Source: Methanobacteriota archaeon (GTDB lineage Archaea; JAADCQ01; Methanopyri; Methanopyrales; Methanopyraceae). From it: a stretch of DNA of 27,227 bases. The stretch spans positions 1 through 27,227 of the forward strand of contig JAMOPY010000049.1 in the NCBI GenBank assembly GCA_027064305.1. Direction: 5' to 3'. The notes under the pieces are model-generated. The model worked only from the letters and a program-made list of their open reading frames with translations, was not told the DNA's origin and did no database searches. Shown piece by piece: positions 3,619 through 16,153 of the stretch. Position numbers and translations under genes: made by a program. Positions within the stretch are counted from its first letter, which is position 1. Each line of letters opens with the position of its first letter.

Positions 3619-4782
3619 TTACTTCAGCGCTCTCAGCCGGACCTCCGGCTCCAGCGTCCTCGGCTCGGCCGCGACGATCGCCGCGCCCTTGGCGACCACC
3701 GTCATCGGGTCGTCCGCCAGCTCGGCCGGGATGTCCGTCTCCTCCTCGATGCGCGCCTGCATGCCCGGCATCAGGGACGTGCCGCCCACCATGACCGTGT
3801 TGTCGTACACGCCCGGGATCAGCTCCGCGGGCAGCCGGTCCAGGATCCTTCGGATGGCGCGGATGATCTCCTGCACGACGGGCTCGGCGGCCTTGGCCAC
3901 CAGCTCCGAGTCGATCGTGATCTCCTTGGGCTTGTTCGTCTCGACGTCCTTGCCCACGACCTCGATCTCCTTGTCCTCGAAGTCCTCGGTCTCGGAGAAC
4001 ACGCGACCCACCTCGATCTTGGCCCGCTCGGCCTCGTGGATGCCGATCCGGACCCCGTACTCCTCCTCGACGAGCTCGACGATGTTCTGGTCGATGTCGT
4101 CGCCACCCACGCGCATGGTCTCCTGGTCCGTGATGCCGCCCAGCGAGATGACCGCGATGTCGGTGGATCCGGCGCCGATGTCGATCACCATCGTGCCCGT
4201 GGGCTCGGCGATGGGTAGGCCGGCGCCGATGGCCGCCGCGAGGGCCTCCTGGATGATGATCACGTTGTCCTCCTCGATCCCGACCTCGACGGTCGCCTCC
4301 TTGATCGCGCGGCGCTCCACCTCGGAGGCGTCACCCGGGACGCCCACGGCGACCCGCTCGATCTCCTCCGGGTTGTTGTTCGAACCGACCTCGATCGCGT
4401 ACTGGACGATGAACTTGGCGTACTCCATGGACTCGATGACTCCGTGCCGGAGGGGTCGGACGGCCACGATGTCCTCCGGGGTGCGGCCGAGCATCTTGCG
4501 GGCTTCCTCACCGATGGCCAGCACCTTGTTCGTGCCCTTCTTGACGGCCACCACGGAGGGGAACTGTTTGACCTGGAACTCCTCCTCCGAGGGGCGCGCC
4601 ACCACCGTGTTCATGGTGCCCAGGTCGATGCCGAGGGCCGCGTAATCGCCGTAGATCTCGACCTCTTCCTCCCTCTCCAACTCCTCGGAGATGGACTCCT
4701 CCTCGCGCTCCTCGGTCTCCTCGCCGCGCTCCTCCTCTTCCTCCTCACCCTCCTCGCGCTTCTTCCTCCTCCAGAACGGCAA
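3619..4782 (-). CDS. mreB: MreB/Mbl-like actin-family ATPase (rod shape-determining protein)
   Basis: Phosphate-1 GIDLGTMNT, RPLRHGVI, VERRAI, connect-1 EALAAAIGAGLP, phosphate-2 MVIDIGAGSTD, GGDDID, AERAKIEVG, adenosine VGGTSL, connect-2 VAKGA. Acidic N-terminal extension. Confidence 0.93.
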   Translation of the reverse strand: MPFWRRKKREEGEEEEEERGEETEEREEESISEELEREEEVEIYGDYAALGIDLGTMNTVVARPSEEEFQVKQFPSVVAVKKGTNKVLAIGEEARKMLGRTPEDIVAVRPLRHGVIESMEYAKFIVQYAIEVGSNNNPEEIERVAVGVPGDASEVERRAIKEATVEVGIEEDNVIIIQEALAAAIGAGLPIAEPTGTMVIDIGAGSTDIAVISLGGITDQETMRVGGDDIDQNIVELVEEEYGVRIGIHEAERAKIEVGRVFSETEDFEDKEIEVVGKDVETNKPKEITIDSELVAKAAEPVVQEIIRAIRRILDRLPAELIPGVYDNTVMVGGTSLMPGMQARIEEETDIPAELADDPMTVVAKGAAIVAAEPRTLEPEVRLRALK

Positions 4783-4794
4783 GGTCGAGCTCCC

Positions 4795-5415
4795 CTACCC
4801 CTCCTCCTCGGTGCCCGGGATCTCGTGGACGTAAACGCCACGATCGTTCGCGATCTTTCGAAACTCCTCGGGATCCTCCACCTGCAGGACCATAATGCTG
4901 AACGTCTCCTCCTCGACCCCCAAAAACACGCTTATAATGTTCCTAATGGGGCGAGGCATCACGTCGAAGAGGATCATCGAGGTCTCGATGAACGCGGGCC
5001 CTCTCCTCCTCCTGTTAACCTTAATCTTCATCCGGCTCCTGGCCCGCGACATCACGCTCTTGAGGACGGAGTCCGGCCCGGCAACGACGTAATTCCCATC
5101 ACCTTCCTCGAAAACCAGGGACAGCAGCTCGGACTTGGTCGCCACGCGGCTGATTAACGAGGTGATCTCGGAGGTGGACCGTATTAGGGTGACGCCGTAC
5201 CTCCACACGGTAACCCCGTACTTGGTCTTAACCTCACGATTATCCACGATTTCAAATTTTGAAAATCTCATCGTCTCATAGAGGGCCTCTTCGATATCCT
5301 CAGGATCCCCTAGTATGGCGCAGTACGAGTTCATTTCCTCGTCCATTTTCTCATATGATACGGCGGCGGACCTTAGCAGTTTAACTCTGGTTTCCGGGTC
5401 CTCCGTAGCCTTCAA
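4795..5415 (-). CDS. Hypothetical protein (206 aa) between oapC and mreB
   Basis: Fills the gap in the operon, 4-bp overlap with oapC, GGAGGGG RBS before TTG. No recognisable motif. Low GC. Confidence 0.75.
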   Translation of the reverse strand: MKATEDPETRVKLLRSAAVSYEKMDEEMNSYCAILGDPEDIEEALYETMRFSKFEIVDNREVKTKYGVTVWRYGVTLIRSTSEITSLISRVATKSELLSLVFEEGDGNYVVAGPDSVLKSVMSRARSRMKIKVNRRRRGPAFIETSMILFDVMPRPIRNIISVFLGVEEETFSIMVLQVEDPEEFRKIANDRGVYVHEIPGTEEEG

Positions 5416-5675
5416 CCCCTCCGTCCCCGCCCGTCCGCGGGTGGTAATAGGATAAAGTATCTACCAGATTTGTACACGGTGATGACGTCGTCTATGTTAT
5501 CAATGTTAATCTTGTACACCCCATCCCGCTCCACCACTATGGCGGCAGGGTCATGATTATCGTCCTCAGGAATGCGCTGAAACAACCTACATCCGCAGTT
5601 CGGGCACCCTCTTTTAATCAATTCATCGCTCAGCTTATCGAACGTTCTACCGCATTTAAAGCACCGGTGTGGCAT
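5412..5675 (-). CDS. oapC: Zn-ribbon protein, DUF2072 / OapC (ArvC) family
   Basis: MPHRCFKCGRTF...LIKRGCPNCGCRLF and C-terminal GVYKINI...SGRYFILLP. Start moved to ATG 5675 (RBS GGTGACGGAGG). Confidence 0.85.
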   Translation of the reverse strand: MPHRCFKCGRTFDKLSDELIKRGCPNCGCRLFQRIPEDDNHDPAAIVVERDGVYKINIDNIDDVITVYKSGRYFILLPPADGRGRRG

Positions 5676-5682
5676 GCCTCCG

Positions 5683-6054
5683 TCACCCAAGTTTTAGCGT
5701 GATGAAATCCTCTCCCTTCTCCAGATCCTTGAGCACGTTCGCCGGCGAGATGACGGTCATTCCCTCCTCGGATCGCTTCCCCAGGAGCCTTTTCATCAGT
5801 CCTCTACCGGATCGTCGGGCCGCCCGCTTCGGCGGGACCACGTAGATGTCGATCCCCGTGAACTCCTCCAGGTCCACCTCCTCCATTGTGCGCTGAATGA
5901 TCTCGGTGAGTAGATCCGGGTTGAGTTGGCCCTCGAAAACGATCACCGCACCGTCCTTCGCCCGGCGTATCACGTACTCGATGAGCTCCGACCTGGACAT
6001 GCCCTTTAGCGCCGATCGGGCCATGACCTCGACCTTGATCTCTCCCTCCGTCAA
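5683..6054 (-). CDS. oapB: DUF2073 / OapB (ArvB) family protein
   Basis: MSRSELIEYVI...GAVIVFEGQL...EFTGIDI...GLMKRLLG...MTVISPANVL. Lies between the GTPase and the Zn-ribbon gene, as in the archaeal oapABC triplet. Confidence 0.85.
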   Translation of the reverse strand: MTEGEIKVEVMARSALKGMSRSELIEYVIRRAKDGAVIVFEGQLNPDLLTEIIQRTMEEVDLEEFTGIDIYVVPPKRAARRSGRGLMKRLLGKRSEEGMTVISPANVLKDLEKGEDFITLKLG

Positions 6055-6677
6055 CCCGTGAACTCCCTGATCATCGCCTTGTAGAGGTCTTCCATGTTCT
6101 CTCCGGTCTTGGCGGAAACCTTAACGACGGGGTAGTCCGAGAAGGCGTCCTCCACGGCGCCCGGGTCGGCCTCTTTTAAGTCTATTTTGTTCGCCACCAC
6201 GATGAACGGTACCTCGTTCGCCTCCAGGTTTCCAATCAGCGTCACGTTCACCTGGGTGAGCGGCTCCCGGGTGGAGTCGATCACCACGAGCGCGCCGTCG
6301 ATGGTCTTGAGCAGTCGGATGGCCTCCACCACGCCCTTGGTGGCCTCCTTGGCCCGCTGCTTGGCCTCCTTCACGTCCAACCCGTACCTGAGGAACTTCC
6401 GGTAGTCCACCTTCGTGGTGACGCCCGGCGTGTCCACGATTTCGAAGTCGACTCGGGACGATCCCAGCTCGATGCGCACCCGGCGCCGGACGGAGCGGCG
6501 CGTCTCGTGCGGGATCTCGGAGACCTCGCCGAACCGCTCCGCGCCCCAGTCCTCCGCGATCCGGTTGGCCAGGGTCGTCTTGCCGACGTTGGGGGCCCCG
6601 TAGATTCCTATTTTAACCTCCCTCCTCGCGGACCTCAGGTAGTCCAGGAGTCGGCTGATGAGGCTCCTGGGCCTCAC
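6051..6677 (-). CDS. oapA: Era-like small GTPase, OapA (ArvA) family
   Basis: G1 GIYGAPNVGKTTLANRI, G2 IPHETRR, G3 DTPG, AKEATKGVVEAI, G4 NKID, G5 VSAKTG. Confidence 0.9.
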   Translation of the reverse strand: MRPRSLISRLLDYLRSARREVKIGIYGAPNVGKTTLANRIAEDWGAERFGEVSEIPHETRRSVRRRVRIELGSSRVDFEIVDTPGVTTKVDYRKFLRYGLDVKEAKQRAKEATKGVVEAIRLLKTIDGALVVIDSTREPLTQVNVTLIGNLEANEVPFIVVANKIDLKEADPGAVEDAFSDYPVVKVSAKTGENMEDLYKAMIREFTG

Positions 6678-6703
6678 GTAACCACCCCGTGGGGGTCGGG
6701 GAC

Positions 6704-7249
6704 GTGGGCGTGGTCAGGTTCGTGAGCCGGGCGATCAGGAGGCCGCTGCGAGTGGGGGCTCCGGCGCCCACGCTGCGTGGAACTGCCAGGTTCATGGTGG
6801 AGGTCACGGGCGTGGGTAGGGGAGACCTGGTGGTGGACGCGGGCACGGGAACGGGCGTGGTGGCGTTGGAGGCGGCCCGGCTCGGGTGCGAGGTGGTCGC
6901 CGTGGATCTGGACGAGGAGCTGCTGAAGGTGGCTCGGGAGCGGGCCCGGGAGGAGGGACTGGACGATCGGATCGAGTTCGTGCGGGCGGACGTTAGGGAG
7001 CTGCCGGACCTGGTGGATCGGGCCGACGCGGTGATCTCCACGGTGCCCATCAAAACGCTTCCCGACCCGGGGCGGGTCTTTGAGGCCTACGCCGAGTCGG
7101 TGCGGCCCGGCGGTCGGGTGGTCCAGCTCACCCACTGGCCGGGGCGCTTTCTGCGGGCGGTCAAGGGCGTACCGCTCCGGGTGGAGCGGAGGTACCTGCG
7201 GTGGGTTCACCTGGTGCCGGGATTCATCTTCGTTTGTCGTCGGGAGTGA
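6704..7249 (+). CDS. pmtA: Phospholipid N-methyltransferase-like protein (Sinorhizobium/Agrobacterium PmtA type)
   Basis: N-terminal RRPLRVGAPAPT...ARFM, motif I VVDAGTGTGVV, DAVISTVP, GGRVVQLTH, C-terminal WVHLVPGFIFVCRR. Directly upstream of psd-pssA. Start GTG 6704 (RBS GGGGGT); 6689 is the alternative. Confidence 0.7.
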   Translation: MGVVRFVSRAIRRPLRVGAPAPTLRGTARFMVEVTGVGRGDLVVDAGTGTGVVALEAARLGCEVVAVDLDEELLKVARERAREEGLDDRIEFVRADVRELPDLVDRADAVISTVPIKTLPDPGRVFEAYAESVRPGGRVVQLTHWPGRFLRAVKGVPLRVERRYLRWVHLVPGFIFVCRRE

Positions 7250-7255
7250 CGGGGT

Positions 7256-7948
7256 ATGCTGGCGCCCGGCTGGCACCGGTTCGTGCTGCCGCCCGCGGTG
7301 CTCGGTGCGATCACCGCCCCCGTGTGCAAGCCCGCCTCCGCGCTGTTCCTGGCCGCGGCCGGCTTCCTGGCCTTCTTCTTCCGGAACCCCGATCGGGAGC
7401 CGCCGAGCGACCCCAGGTTGATGGTCTCCGCCGCCGACGGTCGGCTCCTGGGTAGGGTCATGCACGTGGGTCCCGGGGACGAGGAGGTGGAGTCCTACCT
7501 GGACGAGCCGGTGATGGTCTCCGTGTTCATGTCCCCGCTGGACGTGCACGTGAACCGGGCGCCGTTCGACGGCGTCGTGCGGGAGGTGAGCCGGGTCCGG
7601 GGGCGCACCGTGCCCGCGTTCAGGTCCTCCTCGGCGACGGAGAATCACCGGGCGATCCTGCTGTTCGAGGGCAGGGTGCCGTTCCTTGTGCGGCTGGTGG
7701 TGGGAGCGGTCGCGCGTCGGATCGACCTGTACGTGGAGGAGGGAGACCGGGTGCGGCGCGGTCAGCCGATAGGGATGATAAGACTGGGTTCCCGGGTGGA
7801 CGTGGCCGTTCCGCGGGCTCACGTGGACCGGGTCCTGGTCTCGGTGGGTGACCGGGTCAGGGCGGGTGAGACGCCGATAATCAGGGTAAAAGAGGGGAGG
7901 AGGAGTGGACGAGCGGATCGAGAGGTGGAAGATCACCAGCCTGCTTAA
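7256..7948 (+). CDS. psd: Archaetidylserine/phosphatidylserine decarboxylase proenzyme
   Basis: FFFRNPDR, VSAADG, SVFMSPLDVHVNRAP, ENHR, GAVARRI, self-cleavage motif GMIRLGSRVD, VRAGET. Confidence 0.93.
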   Translation: MLAPGWHRFVLPPAVLGAITAPVCKPASALFLAAAGFLAFFFRNPDREPPSDPRLMVSAADGRLLGRVMHVGPGDEEVESYLDEPVMVSVFMSPLDVHVNRAPFDGVVREVSRVRGRTVPAFRSSSATENHRAILLFEGRVPFLVRLVVGAVARRIDLYVEEGDRVRRGQPIGMIRLGSRVDVAVPRAHVDRVLVSVGDRVRAGETPIIRVKEGRRSGRADREVEDHQPA

Positions 7949-8642
7949 CGCCCCGTCGGTGGTGTCCACGCTCAACGTGGTGTTCGGCTCCATCTCCGTG
8001 CTCGCGTCCCTGTCCGGGTGGCCCGGGCTCTCCTCCCGGATGATCCTGCTCTCCTTCATCGCCGACTCGATCGACGGGTTCGTGGCGCGGAGGAAGCGCA
8101 AGACGTCCGAGTTCGGTAAGCAGCTGGACTCGCTCGCGGACGTGATCTCGTTCGCCGTGGCCCCGGCCTCGCTGCTCCTGGTCGGGAAGATGGCGCCCGC
8201 GCTCGTGGCCTACCCGCTGGCCGTGGTCATGGTGTGCTGCGGGGCCCTCCGCCTGGCCCGCTTTAACGCGATGTGCGCCGAGGGTTACTCCCCGGACGAG
8301 TACTACTTGGGACTGCCGGTGCCCTGGGTGGGCACCGCCACCTCGTGCCTGTACTTCCTGACCACGGACCTGCCCTCGCGGGTCTGGCTGGTGGTCAACC
8401 CGGTGGTGCTGGCGGGCGCGTCGGCGCTCATGGTGTCCACCGTTCGGTTCCCGAGCTTTAAGCGCCCTCACCCGGCGGTGATCACCATCGGTGGCGCCTC
8501 GATGCTGGCCCTCCTGTTCAGTCCCCTGTTCTGCCCGGGCTGGTTAAGGGGGAAGTTGGAGGTGGCCTCCTCCGGAATGATCCTGGGAATTCTCTCGTAC
8601 TACGCGCTGTCGGGGGTGATAGGGTGCGTGCGGCGGTGGTAG
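7905..8642 (+). CDS. pssA: Archaetidylserine synthase (CDP-alcohol phosphatidyltransferase, PssA subclass II)
   Basis: DSIDGFVAR...SEFGKQLDSLADVISFAVAPA, GALRLARFN, YLGLPVP, LMVSTVRFPSFK. Multiple TM helices. Confidence 0.93.
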   Translation: MDERIERWKITSLLNAPSVVSTLNVVFGSISVLASLSGWPGLSSRMILLSFIADSIDGFVARRKRKTSEFGKQLDSLADVISFAVAPASLLLVGKMAPALVAYPLAVVMVCCGALRLARFNAMCAEGYSPDEYYLGLPVPWVGTATSCLYFLTTDLPSRVWLVVNPVVLAGASALMVSTVRFPSFKRPHPAVITIGGASMLALLFSPLFCPGWLRGKLEVASSGMILGILSYYALSGVIGCVRRW

Positions 8643-9721
8643 CGTCGACGGCGGCCCTGGAGATCCCGGAGGAGCGTCGTCACGCCATCGTGGGCGCGCT
8701 GGTGCTGGGCCTGGTCATCCTGGGGTCCGCCGTCGGCGCCTGGTACTTCCTGTACTACCGACCGTACATGGAACAGCTGCAGAAGCTCCGGCAGCAGAAG
8801 CTCGCGGAGCTGAACAGGTACTTCACGGGGCCGCTGGCCACGTCCCCGATGCGGGCGAAGCTGCAGCAGCAGATCCTGTCCGCGGAGACGATAGAGCAGC
8901 TGCAGGCCATCGACGTGGTGGGAGCGGCCACGGTGGAGTGGCAGAAGTACCAGATCTCGCAGATCAAGAGGAACCAGAAGAACGGCCGGGTCGAGCTGAT
9001 CACGCCCCAAGGGCCGCAGCTGATGTCGGTCAAGGACGCGATCGCGAAGGTGAAGTCCATGTCCGCGGACGATCTGATGAAACTGGTGGTCAAGAGGCCG
9101 GAGACCGTGCTGATCGCCGTCTGGGCGGACCCCAACAAGACCGGGGCCATCCGGGTCGGGGACAGGGTCACGCTGTCGACCGTGGACTGGGTGATCAAGG
9201 CGGCGCTGCACAAGCGGGGTGAGACCAAGGTTCCCAGGGAGCTGCTGAAGGGACCGAACCAAATCAGCGGTGGGATCGTGCGGTACATACTGCTGGTCCG
9301 AGGCGGTTTGGCGGGATTTAACACGAAGATCAACCTGGAGTCGGCCGCCAAGGCGGCGGAGCTGTACCGATCCGGCAGCGTCGACATCGCGGCCCGCAAG
9401 ATGGTCGTGCCGGCCGCGGCGCTCGGCCTGGTCGGGAGAGGAGGGGCCGGCGGGGCCGCCGGCGGCGGAGGAACCCTACAGCGGGCTCAGGAACCCCTGG
9501 TCGGCATCGTCGATCTGTCGGATTTCATCAAGGCGATGGCTCTGGCGAAGGCGAAGAGGGGAGGGTACGTCAAGCAGCTCATGTCGCTGGAGCAGCGGGA
9601 GGGGATCCGCGCGTGGGACAAGCTGATCGTGGTCGTGGAGATCCCCAAGGATGCCGTGACTCCGAAGATCCTCATAGCGGCCGCGGTCCGGGGAGGCTTC
9701 TGGATCATGCCGGAGCGGTGA
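8624..9721 (+). CDS. Single-pass membrane protein, DUF515-like
   Basis: N-terminal TM (IVGALVLGLVILGSAVGAWYFLYY), then RPY...KLAELNRYFTGPLA helical segment resembling DUF515 of methanogens/Thermococcales. RBS GGGGGTGA upstream. Confidence 0.65.
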   Translation: MRAAVVASTAALEIPEERRHAIVGALVLGLVILGSAVGAWYFLYYRPYMEQLQKLRQQKLAELNRYFTGPLATSPMRAKLQQQILSAETIEQLQAIDVVGAATVEWQKYQISQIKRNQKNGRVELITPQGPQLMSVKDAIAKVKSMSADDLMKLVVKRPETVLIAVWADPNKTGAIRVGDRVTLSTVDWVIKAALHKRGETKVPRELLKGPNQISGGIVRYILLVRGGLAGFNTKINLESAAKAAELYRSGSVDIAARKMVVPAAALGLVGRGGAGGAAGGGGTLQRAQEPLVGIVDLSDFIKAMALAKAKRGGYVKQLMSLEQREGIRAWDKLIVVVEIPKDAVTPKILIAAAVRGGFWIMPER

Positions 9722-9772: not shown

Positions 9773-10750
9773 TTGAAGTTGCGACACCTGGGATCGATCG
9801 TGCCGGCGCTGGTGGTCGGCGTGGCGGTCCTAGCCGGGGTCTGGGTGGCGGAGGAGTCGGGACAGGTGAAGCTCGGTCAGATGCCCACCGGATCCCCCGC
9901 CGCCGGGGCTCAGGCGGCCGGTAGCGCGGCCTCAGGGGCCGCGAGGACCGCCGCCGGGGCGGCCCAGTCCGTGGGAGCGGGAGGGGCCGGTGCCGGCGGT
10001 GGCGACCCGTTCGTGGTCAGCGAGGCGATCATCAGGGTCCAGGCGGTCGGCAAGGGGGCCAAGAAGGTCAGCAAGGTCGAGGAGATACCCAACTCCAGAG
10101 TGCGGGAGTGCAAGGTGTCGGGTGATCGGGCGGAGGCGGTCATCGAGGCGCACGACGTTCCCATCAGCGGGCTGCCGGTGAGCGTGAACCCGGGATGGCC
10201 GTTCAAGATGAGCGACTGCCGGTACGAGAGGATCGAGGTCACGTTCAAGCTCAAGGCCAACACGGACAACGCCGAGGAAACGGACTTCGCGGGGCTCATC
10301 GCGCTGAGCGATGGTCGGGTGACGTCGGCCGACCCGCGCCCGGACCGCACGGAGGACGGGACCGCGATCTGGAGGGTGGCCATCCGGGACGGCAAGTTCG
10401 TCATCAACGGCCGTGAGGACGGGGAGTTCCCGCGGTTCCGGTACGTGCTGGAGTACGGTCGGGGCGCCGGGGCCGGTGGAGTCGGTGGAACCGGTGGTGC
10501 CGTCGGTGGTGGTCAGGCCGGTGGTGGAGCCGGGGCCGGTGGTCCGGGAGCCGGGGGCGGCGCGGGTGCCCCCGGACCGGGGGCCGGTGCCGGCGGTGGC
10601 GCCGGTGGGGTCAAGATGGTGAGGGGAGGCGCCGGTACCGGGATGCCGGTGGGCAAGTACCGGACCGGTGAGTCGCTGTTCCTGATCACGGCGGCCGTCA
10701 TCGGGGCGCTGGTGGGAGCGTACCTGGTGTACAGGGGCCTCCGGCGGTGA
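9773..10750 (+). CDS. Secreted Gly/Ala-rich cell-surface protein with C-terminal sortase-type sorting signal
   Basis: N-terminal signal/TM, beta-rich central domain of about 145 aa, Gly-rich linker, then KYRTG + hydrophobic segment (SLFLITAAVIGALVGAYLVY) + RGLRR tail. Stop overlaps the sortase start. Confidence 0.75.
   Translation: MKLRHLGSIVPALVVGVAVLAGVWVAEESGQVKLGQMPTGSPAAGAQAAGSAASGAARTAAGAAQSVGAGGAGAGGGDPFVVSEAIIRVQAVGKGAKKVSKVEEIPNSRVRECKVSGDRAEAVIEAHDVPISGLPVSVNPGWPFKMSDCRYERIEVTFKLKANTDNAEETDFAGLIALSDGRVTSADPRPDRTEDGTAIWRVAIRDGKFVINGREDGEFPRFRYVLEYGRGAGAGGVGGTGGAVGGGQAGGGAGAGGPGAGGGAGAPGPGAGAGGGAGGVKMVRGGAGTGMPVGKYRTGESLFLITAAVIGALVGAYLVYRGLRR
10457..10642 (+). repeat. Low-complexity Gly/Ala codon repeat (GGGGCCGGT/GCCGGTGG-type units) encoding a GAGAGG linker
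   Basis: Translated GRGAGAGGVGGTGGAVGGGQAGGGAGAGGPGAGGGAGAPGPGAGAGGGAGG. Imperfect short repeats, no spacers. Confidence 0.8.
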
Positions 10751-11232
10751 GGCTCCGGTACCTGGTCCCGGGGCTGCTGCTTCTGGCCCCATCCACCGTT
10801 TATTTGGGCCAGCTGGCGGCGAGGGAGCTGGCGTATCGGCTGTACCACGGTTCCGTGTCCGTGCCCGGGTGCGAGCTGGTTATCCCGAAGCTGCACCTGC
10901 GGGAGCCGATCAACGCGATCTCGCCGGACTATGGGGTGTACTACGATCCGGAGACGCCGGAGCCCGGGGAGCGCGGGATCACGATCCTGTACGGGCACCG
11001 GACGCTGTTCGGGTCCCCGTTCAGGCGGTTAAACGAGCTGGAGCGGGGCGACGAGGTGATCGTGTACTGGTTCGGGCGGAAGTACGTGTACCGGGTGTAC
11101 GGGAAGGAGGTGGTGAGCCCGGACGCGCGGGTGGACCCGTACGGGGTGGGCCGGGACGAGCTCTGGCTGGTCACGTGCGCGCCCTTGTGGTCGTCGAGCG
11201 AGCGGTTGGTGGTGAAGTGCGCCCGGGGTTAG
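10747..11232 (+). CDS. Sortase (class D/E-like)
   Basis: N-terminal hydrophobic anchor, LVIPKL, ILYGHRT...PFRRLNELERGD, YVYRVY, LWLVTC, ERLVV. His/Cys/Arg catalytic triad intact. Confidence 0.92.
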   Translation: MRLRYLVPGLLLLAPSTVYLGQLAARELAYRLYHGSVSVPGCELVIPKLHLREPINAISPDYGVYYDPETPEPGERGITILYGHRTLFGSPFRRLNELERGDEVIVYWFGRKYVYRVYGKEVVSPDARVDPYGVGRDELWLVTCAPLWSSSERLVVKCARG

Positions 11233-13499: not shown

Positions 13500-14687
13500 T
13501 CATGAGGAGTAGGCGGTGACGACCTTCTCGACGGCCCGGACCACGTCCTCAAGGTCCTCGCGGGAGAGCCCGGGGTGCACGGGGATCGACAGGACGGTAC
13601 GGGCCGCGAGCTCGGAGTTGGGGAGGCTCGCGGTGTGGTACCCGCGCTTGAGGTACACGGGCTGCCGGTGGAGGGGCCTGGGGTAGTGGACGGCGCAGTC
13701 GACGCCCTCCGCCCGGAGGGCCTCCGCGAACTCGTCCCGGGTGCACTCGAGCGCGTCCGGGTCGAGGCGGATGGTGAACTGGTGGTAAACGTGTTTTGCC
13801 CAGGACCGCTCGCGGGGGAGCCGGATCTCGGGCTCTAGGTCGCTCAGCTCCCGGATGTAGAACCGGGCGTTCTTCCGGCGGCGCCGGTTGAGCTCGTCCA
13901 GCCGTTTGAGCTGCTCCAGCCCGATCGCCGCGGCGATGTCGGTCATCCGGTAGTTGTAGCCCAGCTCCACGTGATCGTACCGCTCGCGCTCCCCGTGGGA
14001 GCGGAGCATCGCGGCGGCCTCCGCCAGGTCCTCGTCGTCCGTCGTGATCGCCCCGCCCTCGCCCGTGGTCATGTTCTTCGTCGGGTAGAAGCTGAAGCAG
14101 CCCGCGTCGCCCAGGGCGCCGACCCGGTCCCCGCGGTACTCGGCCCCGTGCGCCTGGGCCGCGTCCTCGATCACGAGGAGGTCGTACTCCTCCGCGAGCT
14201 CGAGGATGGGTCGCATGTCGGCCGGGTGACCGTACAGGTGCACGGGGATCACGGCGACGCGGCGCGGGGTGAGCCGCCGCTCCCGCTCCAGGCTCCGGAG
14301 GAGCTCCTCCAGGGAGGCGGGGTCCAGGCAGTACGTCTCCAGGTCGATGTCGACGAACGCGACCTCGGCCCCGGCGTGCAGGGCGACGTTGGCCGTCGCG
14401 ATAAACGTAAAAGACGGCACGATCACGAGGTCGCCCGCGCCGATTCCGGCCGCTTCCAGCGCCAGCTGAAGGGCGGTCGTGCCCGAGCTCGTGGCCACGC
14501 AGTGCTCCGTCCCCACGTACTCGGCGAAGCGCCGCTCGAACTCCTCCACGCGCGGTCCCTGCGCCAGCTGTCCGGAGCGCAGCACCTCCTCCACGGCCCG
14601 GATCTCCTCGTCGCCGATCACCGGCTGCGCGATCGGGATACGCTCCTCCCGCACCGGCTTACCGCCCTCGATGGCCAGCCTGGACAA
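13500..14687 (-). CDS. DegT/DnrJ/EryC1/StrS PLP-dependent sugar aminotransferase
   Basis: SSGTTAL, PSFTFIAT, PVHLYG, IEDAAQAHGA, FSFYPTKNMTTGEGG, GYNYRM. Start moved to TTG 14687 (MSRLAIEGG), which removes the overlap with rpl35ae. Confidence 0.92.
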   Translation of the reverse strand: MSRLAIEGGKPVREERIPIAQPVIGDEEIRAVEEVLRSGQLAQGPRVEEFERRFAEYVGTEHCVATSSGTTALQLALEAAGIGAGDLVIVPSFTFIATANVALHAGAEVAFVDIDLETYCLDPASLEELLRSLERERRLTPRRVAVIPVHLYGHPADMRPILELAEEYDLLVIEDAAQAHGAEYRGDRVGALGDAGCFSFYPTKNMTTGEGGAITTDDEDLAEAAAMLRSHGERERYDHVELGYNYRMTDIAAAIGLEQLKRLDELNRRRRKNARFYIRELSDLEPEIRLPRERSWAKHVYHQFTIRLDPDALECTRDEFAEALRAEGVDCAVHYPRPLHRQPVYLKRGYHTASLPNSELAARTVLSIPVHPGLSREDLEDVVRAVEKVVTAYSS

Positions 14688-14713
14688 CCCGCGGCCCCCT
14701 GGGGGTTGGCCCG

Positions 14714-14995
14714 ATGTCGGAGGTGAAGGTGAAGCGCGGCGTGATCGTGAACTACCGAATGGGCAGGCACACGCAGGACCCACGGCAGTGCATAATAGAG
14801 TTTCAGGGTGTGGACAGCAAGTCCGAGGCGGCGCGGCTGATCGGCAAGGAGGTGGTCTGGAGGCACCCGGAGACGGGTACGGAGATCCGGGGCAAGATCG
14901 TGGACACGCACGGGAACAACGGGGCCGTGCGGGCCCGGTTCGAGCGCGGCCTGCCGGGCCAGGCCCTCGGGACCGAGGTGGAGCTGCGCGACTAG
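14714..14995 (+). CDS. rpl35ae: 50S ribosomal protein L35Ae (eL33)
   Basis: GVIVNYRMGRHTQ...GVDSKSEAARLIGKEVVW...GKIVDTHGNNGAVRARFERGLPGQALG. Confidence 0.95.
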   Translation: MSEVKVKRGVIVNYRMGRHTQDPRQCIIEFQGVDSKSEAARLIGKEVVWRHPETGTEIRGKIVDTHGNNGAVRARFERGLPGQALGTEVELRD

Positions 14996-15013: not shown

Positions 15014-16153
15014 ATGAGGGTCGAGACGGTCAGGGAGGGCCGGACGCTACTCAAGGTTCCCCGAGTCCGCGGTCAGCCCTCCTCCCGCGACCCCGTGTTC
15101 TACAACCCGCGCATGCGCCTTAGCCGGGACCTCACGGTGGCCTCGGTCGGTCCCGCCAACCCGCGCCTCGTGTGCGACCCGCTCGCGGGCGTGGGGGCCC
15201 GCGGCCTCCGGATCGCGGTGGAGCTCGACCCGGACACGGTCGTGCTCAACGACATCAACGAGCGGGCCGTGGAGCTGATCGAGGAGAACGTCCGGCTGAA
15301 CGGCGTCGAGGACGTCTGCCGGGTCGAGAACCGGGACGCGAACGCGCTGATGTGCGAGGACGAGCTGGCCGGCGCGTTCGACTACGTGGACCTGGACCCG
15401 TTCGGCCCGCCCGTTCCCTTCCTCGACGCGGCCGTTCGCACCCTGCGGAACCGGGGCCTGATCGGGGTCTCCGCGACGGACGTCTCCGCCCTCGCTGGTC
15501 GCTACCCGCGGGCGGCGCGCCGTAAGTACTGGGTGGAGGTGGAGCGGGTCGAGTTCTACCAGGAGGTGGCCATCCGGGCCCTGCTCTCGTACGTGGTGAG
15601 GACGTGCGCGAAGTACGACCTGGCGTTCGAGCCCCTCGTCGCGTTCTTCCAGCGTCATCACGTGCGCGTGGTGGGCCGGGTGCGGCGCGGGGCGAGGCGC
15701 GCGGACAGGGCGCTGAGGCGGCTGGGGCACGTGGGGCACTGCCGGAAGTGCGGGTTCACGGCCGTGGTCGAGCCGGGCGAGGACGAGTGCCCGGAGTGCG
15801 GGGAGGGGCTCACCGTCCTGGGCCCGCTCTGGTTGGAGGACTTCGTCGATCGCGCGTGGGCCCGCCGGGCGGCGGAGGTGGCGGGGCGTCTGGGGCTCGA
15901 GCGGGCTCGTGAGCTGCTGGAGCGGTTGGCCGAGGAGGTAGGGCTGCTTCCCTGGAGCTACGACGTGCACCGGTGGGCGTCGCGGTTGGGGCTGCCCCGG
16001 GTCCCGCGGCTGAAAGATGTATTGGAGGGGCTGCGGGAGAGGGGGCGTCGGGCCCTGAGGCCGCACTACTCCCGGCGGTCCGTGGTCAAGACGGACGCCG
16101 ATCCGGGGGAGTTCCGCGAGGTGCTGCGCGAGCTGGGGGAGGGAGCATGCTGA
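15014..16153 (+). CDS. trm1: tRNA (guanine-26-N2)-dimethyltransferase
   Basis: PVFYNPRMRLSRD, DPLAGVGARGLR, LNDIN, YVDLDPFG, VSATD, CxxC...CPECG Zn finger, GPLW, VKTDA. Confidence 0.94.
   Translation: MRVETVREGRTLLKVPRVRGQPSSRDPVFYNPRMRLSRDLTVASVGPANPRLVCDPLAGVGARGLRIAVELDPDTVVLNDINERAVELIEENVRLNGVEDVCRVENRDANALMCEDELAGAFDYVDLDPFGPPVPFLDAAVRTLRNRGLIGVSATDVSALAGRYPRAARRKYWVEVERVEFYQEVAIRALLSYVVRTCAKYDLAFEPLVAFFQRHHVRVVGRVRRGARRADRALRRLGHVGHCRKCGFTAVVEPGEDECPECGEGLTVLGPLWLEDFVDRAWARRAAEVAGRLGLERARELLERLAEEVGLLPWSYDVHRWASRLGLPRVPRLKDVLEGLRERGRRALRPHYSRRSVVKTDADPGEFREVLRELGEGAC

Follow-up and report, generated by a model that had tools for sequence, protein, structure and literature searches.

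Among described systems, those closest to the locus considered here are the archaetidylserine synthase and decarboxylase of methanogens, of which a Methanothermobacter enzyme was reportedly described by Morii and Koga in 2003, and the bacterial enzymes that N-methylate the amino groups of membrane lipids, namely the S-type and R-type phospholipid N-methyltransferases (PmtA) and OlsG. Passages of PMC3972451 liken Pmt enzymes of the S-type to rRNA methylases and those of the R-type to UbiE. Phosphatidylcholine head groups have, in the passages of a 2025 paper (PMC11988840) that cite Nishihara et al. 2002, been reported among archaea only from Methanopyrus kandleri. The locus lies in a window of 27,227 nucleotides, contig JAMOPY010000049.1 of a Methanopyrus metagenome-assembled genome (MAG; GCA_027064305.1, here G000 and its contig C49; 1.21 Mb, 89% complete), and comprises three genes, for a methyltransferase (MT), a pyruvoyl decarboxylase (psd) and a CDP-alcohol serine transferase (pssA). 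We propose, with a probability of roughly 0.6, that this trio forms a single head-group pathway for archaeal ether phospholipids, leading from serine through ethanolamine to choline. In the literature searched, no gene or enzyme is assigned to the methylation of phosphatidylethanolamine or archaetidylethanolamine in archaea, in agreement with a preliminary description of this DNA that knew of no characterised enzyme for the step; the words choline, methyltransferase and kandleri are all missing from a review published in 2014 on the biosynthesis of archaeal ether lipids. Older papers that might mention the neighbourhood are Koga and Morii 2007 and Daiyasu 2005.

The three open reading frames follow one another on the plus strand (Table 1), in a window of 65–73% G+C over most of its length. 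The longest frame for MT opens at a GTG and gives 186 amino acids (aa); the GTG at 6704, which gives the 181-aa form, agrees with the predicted protein of the window (P0001) and with the starts of the orthologues. Six base pairs (bp) separate the stop codon of MT (7247–7249) from the ATG of psd, and pssA opens at a GTG lying 44 bp inside psd, where a purine-rich stretch just 5' of the start, GAGGGGAGGAGGA, may serve as a Shine–Dalgarno-like element. The extent of the operon, the gap and the overlap are as the preliminary description had them from the sequence alone, and its gene identities hold as well, since MT matches Methyltransf_25, psd matches PF02666 and pssA matches PF01066. Upstream, a gene for a small GTPase diverges from the operon, and by eye no clear TATA-like element was found in the 26 bp between its start and that of MT. 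RNA data were looked for across positions 6500–8800, and none turned up.

This arrangement was compared in five further genomes (G001 to G005), genus mates named Methanopyrus in public records. The order MT-psd-pssA is intact in four of the six genomes (G000, G001, G002 and G003), and in a fifth, G004, MT-psd is preserved, with MT overlapping the beginning of a psd fragment cut off by the contig end. The contig of G005 stops 112 bases past MT, and this genome is excluded from the count of arrangements. Across the Methanopyrus genomes the identity of MT drops as low as 56–59%.

The decarboxylase and the transferase are ordinary members of the families known from methanogens. The psd product matches PF02666 with E 1.9e-37 (129.3 bits; cut-off 22) and passes the NCBIfam model NF003685 (195.9 bits; cut-off 183), and lies below the cut-off of the archaetidylserine decarboxylase model TIGR00164 (156.4 against 230). 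An LGSR stretch is readable in its translation, and we take it to be the site of the self-cleavage Gly-Ser of the family. The pssA product matches PF01066 with E 1e-18 (68.6 bits; cut-off 22), passes TIGR00473 narrowly (110.2 bits; cut-off 107) and falls short of the archaeal exception models NF038087 (129.4 against 240) and TIGR04217 (105.6 against 200). Its CDP-alcohol motif is intact, reading D-G-F-V-A-R-x8-G-x3-D-x3-D for the consensus D-G-x2-A-R-x8-G-x3-D-x3-D. What sets the locus apart from methanogen archaetidylserine systems is the methyltransferase, which among the 23 Pfam families listed for it passes generic class I methyltransferase domains alone (best, Methyltransf_25, 6.8e-19).

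Full-length relatives of MT are rare. Among 5.8 billion proteins, a word-indexed search returned 113 matches, three of which cover 97% of the query: the protein of the window itself, P0002 (81% identity) and P0003 from Methanopyrus (58%); the match after these covers 59% of the query at E 1.8e-11. When 1.84 billion representative proteins were searched exhaustively with a profile, 51,603 matched at E<=0.001, and only two of them, the Methanopyrus cluster and P0114, remain at E<=1e-30. P0114 is the closest relative outside Methanopyrus, full length with E 8.3e-32. In a set of 401 archaeal genomes (268 genera), 13 match at E<=1e-20 and nine of these at full length, comprising all six Methanopyrus genomes, two from a single further genus (G317 and G337, identical with G031 and G032 below) and G227; the remaining four matches are confined to the Rossmann core. 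Leaving aside Methanopyrus and the two genomes of the other genus, a full-length relative thus occurs in one of 393 archaeal genomes, G227, where it lies away from psd and pssA. The preliminary description had suggested looking for co-occurrence with choline lipids across archaea, and the range of MT, present full length in six of six Methanopyrus genomes, coincides with the sole archaeal genus reported to make archaetidylcholine.

P0114 is found in two MAGs titled Candidatus Undinarchaeota or Undinarchaeales (loci L011 and L012 of G031 and G032), and its gene is again part of a lipid cluster. The order there is psd-MT-pssA, with 4-bp overlaps on either side of MT. The transferase of this cluster passes the pssA model (124.9 bits; cut-off 107), and its decarboxylase matches PF02666 with E 9.8e-41 and scores 170.2 for NF003685, under the cut-off of 183. 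It is hard to explain why the same trio should be coupled, in another order, in a distant archaeal lineage unless MT works with psd and pssA. MT is present in two of the 17 genomes of the phylum to which these MAGs belong. The two are of 3.6–3.8 Mb, 98–99% complete with 5–6% contamination, and the other 15 genomes of the group are of 0.6–1.2 Mb. Each of the two MAGs holds four PF01066 genes, and genes for an RDD protein and an S49 (SppA-type) peptidase lie upstream of psd.

Within Methanopyrus there is exactly one PF01066 match per genome, in all six genomes, including two that are closed and 99% complete, and it is always the pssA of the operon. Consequently, no separate phosphatidylcholine synthase of the PF01066 family was found in the six genomes. 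A phosphatidylcholine synthase (Pcs) route was likewise considered and rejected, the sole PF01066 gene being the one that passes the pssA cut-off. The alternative methylating enzyme PEMT (PF04191) had no match at E<=0.01 in the six genomes, that of the window being 89% complete, while controls matched in six of 14 named genomes. As archaetidylcholine is reported from the genus, PF01066 genes are single and no PEMT was found, a methylation route is expected in Methanopyrus. Should further head groups derived from CDP-archaeol be made there, the enzyme responsible goes undetected by the PF01066 model.

The choline lipid could in principle be made without MT, either by direct use of choline by the single CDP-alcohol transferase or by another class I methyltransferase, such as a 194-aa protein encoded on contig C2. 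The R-type PmtA model NF045882 (cut-off 390) does score the C2 gene above MT, at 28.1 against 19.1 bits, and pssA weakly matches phosphatidylcholine synthase models at about 19–21 bits, but these scores are of generic level when set against cut-offs of 350–440, and the C2 gene adjoins unrelated genes on a 2.5-kb contig. The transferase is moreover coupled to a decarboxylase, a pairing that is sensible only with serine as the substrate. It also counts against such a route that M. kandleri is autotrophic and grows without choline being supplied. We regard synthesis without MT as highly improbable.

The evidence that places MT with lipid N-methyltransferases comes from several comparisons. In its own genome MT is the top match to the model of S-type PmtA, NF045881 (27.2 bits; next gene 13.2), and to that of OlsG, NF041658 (35.4 bits; next gene 28.7). 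Of the six full-length proteins nearest to MT outside Methanopyrus, five had PmtA or OlsG as their first NCBIfam match, and for P0114 OlsG ranked third and PmtA seventh, all of these PmtA and OlsG scores being below cut-off. A profile (A2) made from the Methanopyrus MTs and these six relatives retrieved five source-named proteins with coverage of at least 75%, every one carrying the automatic name of a phospholipid or phosphatidylethanolamine N-methyltransferase; one of the five, P0373, is a Legionella-type, UbiE-like PmtA by NCBIfam scan. Ten A2 matches were scanned in this way, and for the nine of full coverage (168–219 aa) PmtA and OlsG were the sole NCBIfam matches at E<=1e-12, with the whole models aligned; the tenth was P0373. 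In the ESM Atlas, the nearest clusters are bacterial methyltransferases of 174–192 aa, often with RrnaAD matches, and one automatically named ‘Phospholipid N-methyltransferase family’ serves as a lead only.

Profile alignment and phylogeny point the same way. With hhalign, the Methanopyrus alignment matches 16 PmtA/OlsG-like proteins at 99.65% and E 3.6e-25 over 175 columns, residues 5–185 falling on positions 9–195. Residues 1–34 taken alone align to the N-terminus of this profile (P 1.6e-6), and the C-terminal piece alone gives a weak match (P 0.002); neither piece matches the UbiE-like profile. A maximum-likelihood tree of 62 proteins and 190 columns separates 29 family rows from 33 UbiE-like and generic controls with an SH-aLRT (approximate likelihood-ratio test) value of 99, the family side being made up of the Methanopyrus and Undinarchaeota-titled proteins, the intermediates and the 16 PmtA/OlsG-like ones; the identical split appears with a value of 96 on 116 core-only columns, both trees being quick searches without bootstrap. 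Phylogeny against non-lipid methyltransferases, which the preliminary description had proposed as a check, accordingly puts MT on the PmtA/OlsG-like side. The motif IV proline P120 (S-x-[LIV]-P) and Q146, which lies after strand 5 (G-x3-Q-x-T), occur in every one of the 29 family rows and in none of the 33 UbiE-like or generic rows, the rows having been assigned by coverage and score, independently of these residues. Motif IV reads S-T-V-P in the MT of the window and S-G-L-P in most bacterial members.

A number of results weigh against a lipid N-methyltransferase. MT reaches the cut-off of none of the 25 NCBIfam families shown: its score with the PmtA model (E 1.5e-6, positions 17–163 of 197) compares with a cut-off of 250 bits, and that with the OlsG model, 35.4–36.1 bits, with one of 350. 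In hhalign, 13 UbiE-like proteins give a slightly better E value, 7.7e-28, but over residues 34–147 only, and this core taken alone prefers the UbiE-like profile (1.3e-29 against 3.6e-17 for the PmtA/OlsG-like one). The 33 controls of the trees were hand-picked from the best generic matches, and the ‘PmtA/OlsG-like’ comparison proteins all lie under the equivalog cut-off, none of them being experimentally characterised. Sequence and fold searches of the PDB put generic methyltransferases first; the sole solved phosphatidylethanolamine N-methyltransferase (8ys9) reaches 33 bits over the core only, and a Foldseek search with the AlphaFold2 model had UbiG, TrmN and Trm14 at the head of its 1696 matches at E<=0.001. 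As the class I fold is shared across functions, structure search is uninformative on what MT does. The name given by NCBI to the orthologues is ‘TRM11 family’. Finally, two full-length family members do not adjoin lipid genes. The bacterial P0158 shares its 3-kb metagenome contig with DUF547 and a response regulator of the LuxR type, and the archaeal member in G227 has pyrimidine-synthesis neighbours. The G227 protein (L047 1498–2067), from a 1.0-Mb, 100%-complete archaeal genome, is typically bacterial in appearance, with TGAIAPSS, SGLP and NLPPAFVY motifs, and is encoded between dihydroorotase-like and cold-shock genes.

A TRM11-family tRNA methyltransferase was tried as an identity for MT and rejected: TIGR01177 gives 49.8 bits, with the core only, against a cut-off of 316.55, there is no THUMP domain among the 23 Pfam families, and the protein has 181–186 aa. 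The broader possibility is that MT acts on some non-lipid substrate, whether tRNA or rRNA, a protein or a small molecule, and is merely co-transcribed with psd and pssA. That only generic domains pass the Pfam thresholds, that the core is nearest to UbiE-like profiles and that the fold search does not discriminate would all fit such a role, as would the top NCBIfam matches, CpaM (66.4 bits) and TIGR01177, but both of these are far below cut-off (180 for CpaM), THUMP is not among the Pfam matches and the protein has only 181 aa. A chance neighbourhood poorly explains linkage to psd and pssA in a second phylum and in another order, and the signature residues and both trees group MT with the lipid N-methyltransferase-like family. 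A non-lipid substrate seems to us quite unlikely.

The claim of the preliminary description that MT shows the S-type PmtA pattern along its length is supported. Its motif strings are all present in the translation (RRPLRVGAPAPT, GTGTG, DAVISTVP, VVQLT and VPGFIFVCRRE), and the end-to-end alignment, the signatures and the first rank in the genome bear it out, although at 27.2 bits against 250 MT is not classed as a PmtA equivalog. We class it instead as an archaeal relative, and a divergent one, of the PmtA/OlsG-like proteins; its ends and signatures are of the S-type, and its core looks UbiE-like as well.

Like S-type PmtA, MT is a small single-domain class I S-adenosylmethionine (SAM)-dependent methyltransferase of about 180–200 aa with a cationic amphipathic N-terminal helix, an N-terminal P-x3-G-A-x2-P-(S/T), the motif IV and G-x3-Q-x-T signatures given above and a C-terminal P-(P/G)-(A/F), and it is predicted to share the SAM-dependent N-methylation of an ethanolamine head group. 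It differs in that motif I and the acidic residue of strand beta-2 are D...D, as in UbiE-like enzymes, rather than E...E, in being archaeal with an isoprenoid ether lipid as the predicted substrate, and in its translational coupling to psd and pssA. OlsG provides the best-covering curated model for MT (residues 10–156 on positions 6–159 of 191) and the top match for three of the six nearest relatives, and its reaction, like the one predicted for MT, is the N-methylation of an amino group on a membrane lipid. The context of MT is, in contrast, the synthesis of serine and ethanolamine lipids, and archaea are said in a passage of PMC3972451 to lack ornithine lipids. With R-type PmtA (NF045882, and 8ys9 by its deposited name) the similarity is confined to the Rossmann core; no N- or C-terminal region is held in common, and the sole Legionella-type relative, P0373, groups with the UbiE-like controls in the tree.

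At the N-terminal segment VVRFVSRAIRR (residues 8–18 of the 186-aa frame) the hydrophobic moment over 11 residues reaches its maximum for the protein, 1.05, with a net charge of +4, and the equivalent segment ranks first in five of six orthologues. The AlphaFold2 model (pLDDT, the predicted local confidence score, 80.8) shows a helix at residues 7–17, at low confidence. By analogy with PmtA of Agrobacterium tumefaciens, whose N-terminal amphipathic helix with basic residues binds anionic membranes according to passages of PMC6914677, this segment is a proposed membrane-docking element. The signature that follows it, P-L-R-V-G-A-P-A-P-T, is unchanged in all six Methanopyrus orthologues, and F11, G23 and P27 are invariant in an alignment of 10 family rows.

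The pathway would then run as follows. PssA, an integral-membrane CDP-alcohol transferase, would join L-serine to CDP-archaeol to give archaetidylserine, and Psd, a self-cleaving pyruvoyl enzyme, would decarboxylate this to archaetidylethanolamine. The soluble MT would dock on the membrane by its cationic amphipathic N-terminal helix and transfer methyl groups from SAM stepwise, up to three of them, to the ethanolamine nitrogen, yielding archaetidylcholine, a lipid that the organism of the window would itself be predicted to contain. The same succession of archaetidylserine, archaetidylethanolamine and archaetidylcholine had been read from the locus in the preliminary description, and it gains support from the placement and range of MT, the Undinarchaeota-titled cluster and the single CDP-alcohol transferase.

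It is also conceivable that MT acts on the amino lipid of the operon and that the product is something else, such as mono- or dimethyl-archaetidylethanolamine or a methylated archaetidylserine, or that MT serves the downstream genes in some process of lipids or surface anchoring. Sequence does not reveal how many methyl groups are transferred, the product spectrum varies among bacterial Pmt enzymes in passages of PMC3972451, and OlsG, whose substrate is a different amino lipid, is among the best models of the relatives. Genes for a DUF515 protein, a secreted Gly/Ala-rich protein and a sortase come next on the same strand, an order retained in G002 (L050 1845–4320), and both psd and pssA match NCBIfam ‘protein sorting system’ variants of their families, though below cut-off. 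Against this, archaetidylcholine is the sole choline or N-methyl lipid reported from Methanopyrus, as far as the passages cited above go, and no sortase is present in the Undinarchaeota-titled psd-MT-pssA cluster, which argues that the conserved unit is the trio. The downstream sortase may link amino-lipid synthesis to surface anchoring, or it may simply serve the cell wall. Taken together, a product other than archaetidylcholine appears unlikely, and we retain the route to choline as the preferred reading of the operon.

Table 1. Features of the MT-psd-pssA operon and genes in its neighbourhood (window coordinates)
Feature	Position	Strand	Basis or remark
MT, candidate archaetidylethanolamine N-methyltransferase, 181 aa (186 from 6689)	6704..7249	+	Open reading frame, domain matches, orthologues, family placement
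MT, N-terminal cationic amphipathic helix	6710..6742	+	Hydrophobic moment, AlphaFold2 helix
MT, N-terminal signature	6743..6772	+	Corresponds to P-x3-G-A-x2-P-S of bacterial PmtA/OlsG-like proteins
MT, SAM-binding motif I, D-A-G-T-G-T-G	6836..6856	+	Alignments, Pfam Methyltransf_25
MT, motif IV	7037..7048	+	Proline common to PmtA/OlsG-like family
psd, putative archaetidylserine (phosphatidylserine) decarboxylase proenzyme, 230 aa	7256..7948	+	PF02666, NF003685
Purine-rich stretch, Shine–Dalgarno-like	7890..7904	+	Read directly; within psd 3' end
pssA, putative CDP-archaeol:L-serine archaetidyltransferase, 245 aa	7905..8642	+	PF01066, TIGR00473, CDP-alcohol motif
DUF515 protein	8624–9721	+	Start overlaps pssA by 19 bp
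Secreted Gly/Ala-rich protein	9773–10750	+	
Sortase	10747–11232	+	PF04203 1.5e-23; 4-bp overlap with Gly/Ala-rich protein gene
Small GTPase	6051–6677	-	Divergent from operon
OapB	5683–6054	-	PF09846 1.1e-28
OapC	5412–5690	-	PF09845 1.7e-09
MreB/Mbl homologue	3619–4782	-	PF06723 1.6e-101
DegT/DnrJ-type aminotransferase	13500–14783	-	3e-135
Trm1-type N2,N2-dimethylguanosine tRNA methyltransferase	15014–16153	+	PF02005 8.4e-85

The C-terminus of the Gly/Ala-rich protein combines a conserved G-x-Y-[RK]-[TA]-G-E-S-L-F-L-I with a hydrophobic segment and a basic tail, and so resembles a sortase sorting signal; the protein is a putative sortase substrate. On the other side of the operon, beyond the GTPase gene, lie two genes of ‘origin-associated protein’ families, OapB and OapC, and the G+C content is down to 55% at positions 5001–6000. 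Farther out the window encodes an MreB/Mbl homologue, an aminotransferase and a Trm1-type tRNA methyltransferase.

A wider proposition can be built on the locus, namely that MT founds an archaeal branch of PmtA/OlsG enzymes, that with psd and pssA it makes up a self-contained choline module for ether lipids, that choline ether lipids occur also in uncultured marine archaea, and that the module may be wired to the sortase. This combination is tentative, and we rate it a little short of even odds. Archaetidylcholine has been chemically known from M. kandleri since 2002, as the passages cited above have it, and the locus offers the first concrete gene candidate for the archaeal methylation step. 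It names a particular gene open to cloning and testing, that of M. kandleri AAM01380.1 and its relatives, supplies a sequence signature by which the pathway may be spotted in metagenomes, and extends the prediction of choline ether lipids to another archaeal lineage, one that is uncultured. If the proposed pathway is true, a bacterial family of lipid head-group N-methyltransferases reaches archaeal ether lipids, and the enzyme would help to engineer archaeal-type phosphatidylcholine lipids in Escherichia coli strains that make archaetidylethanolamine.

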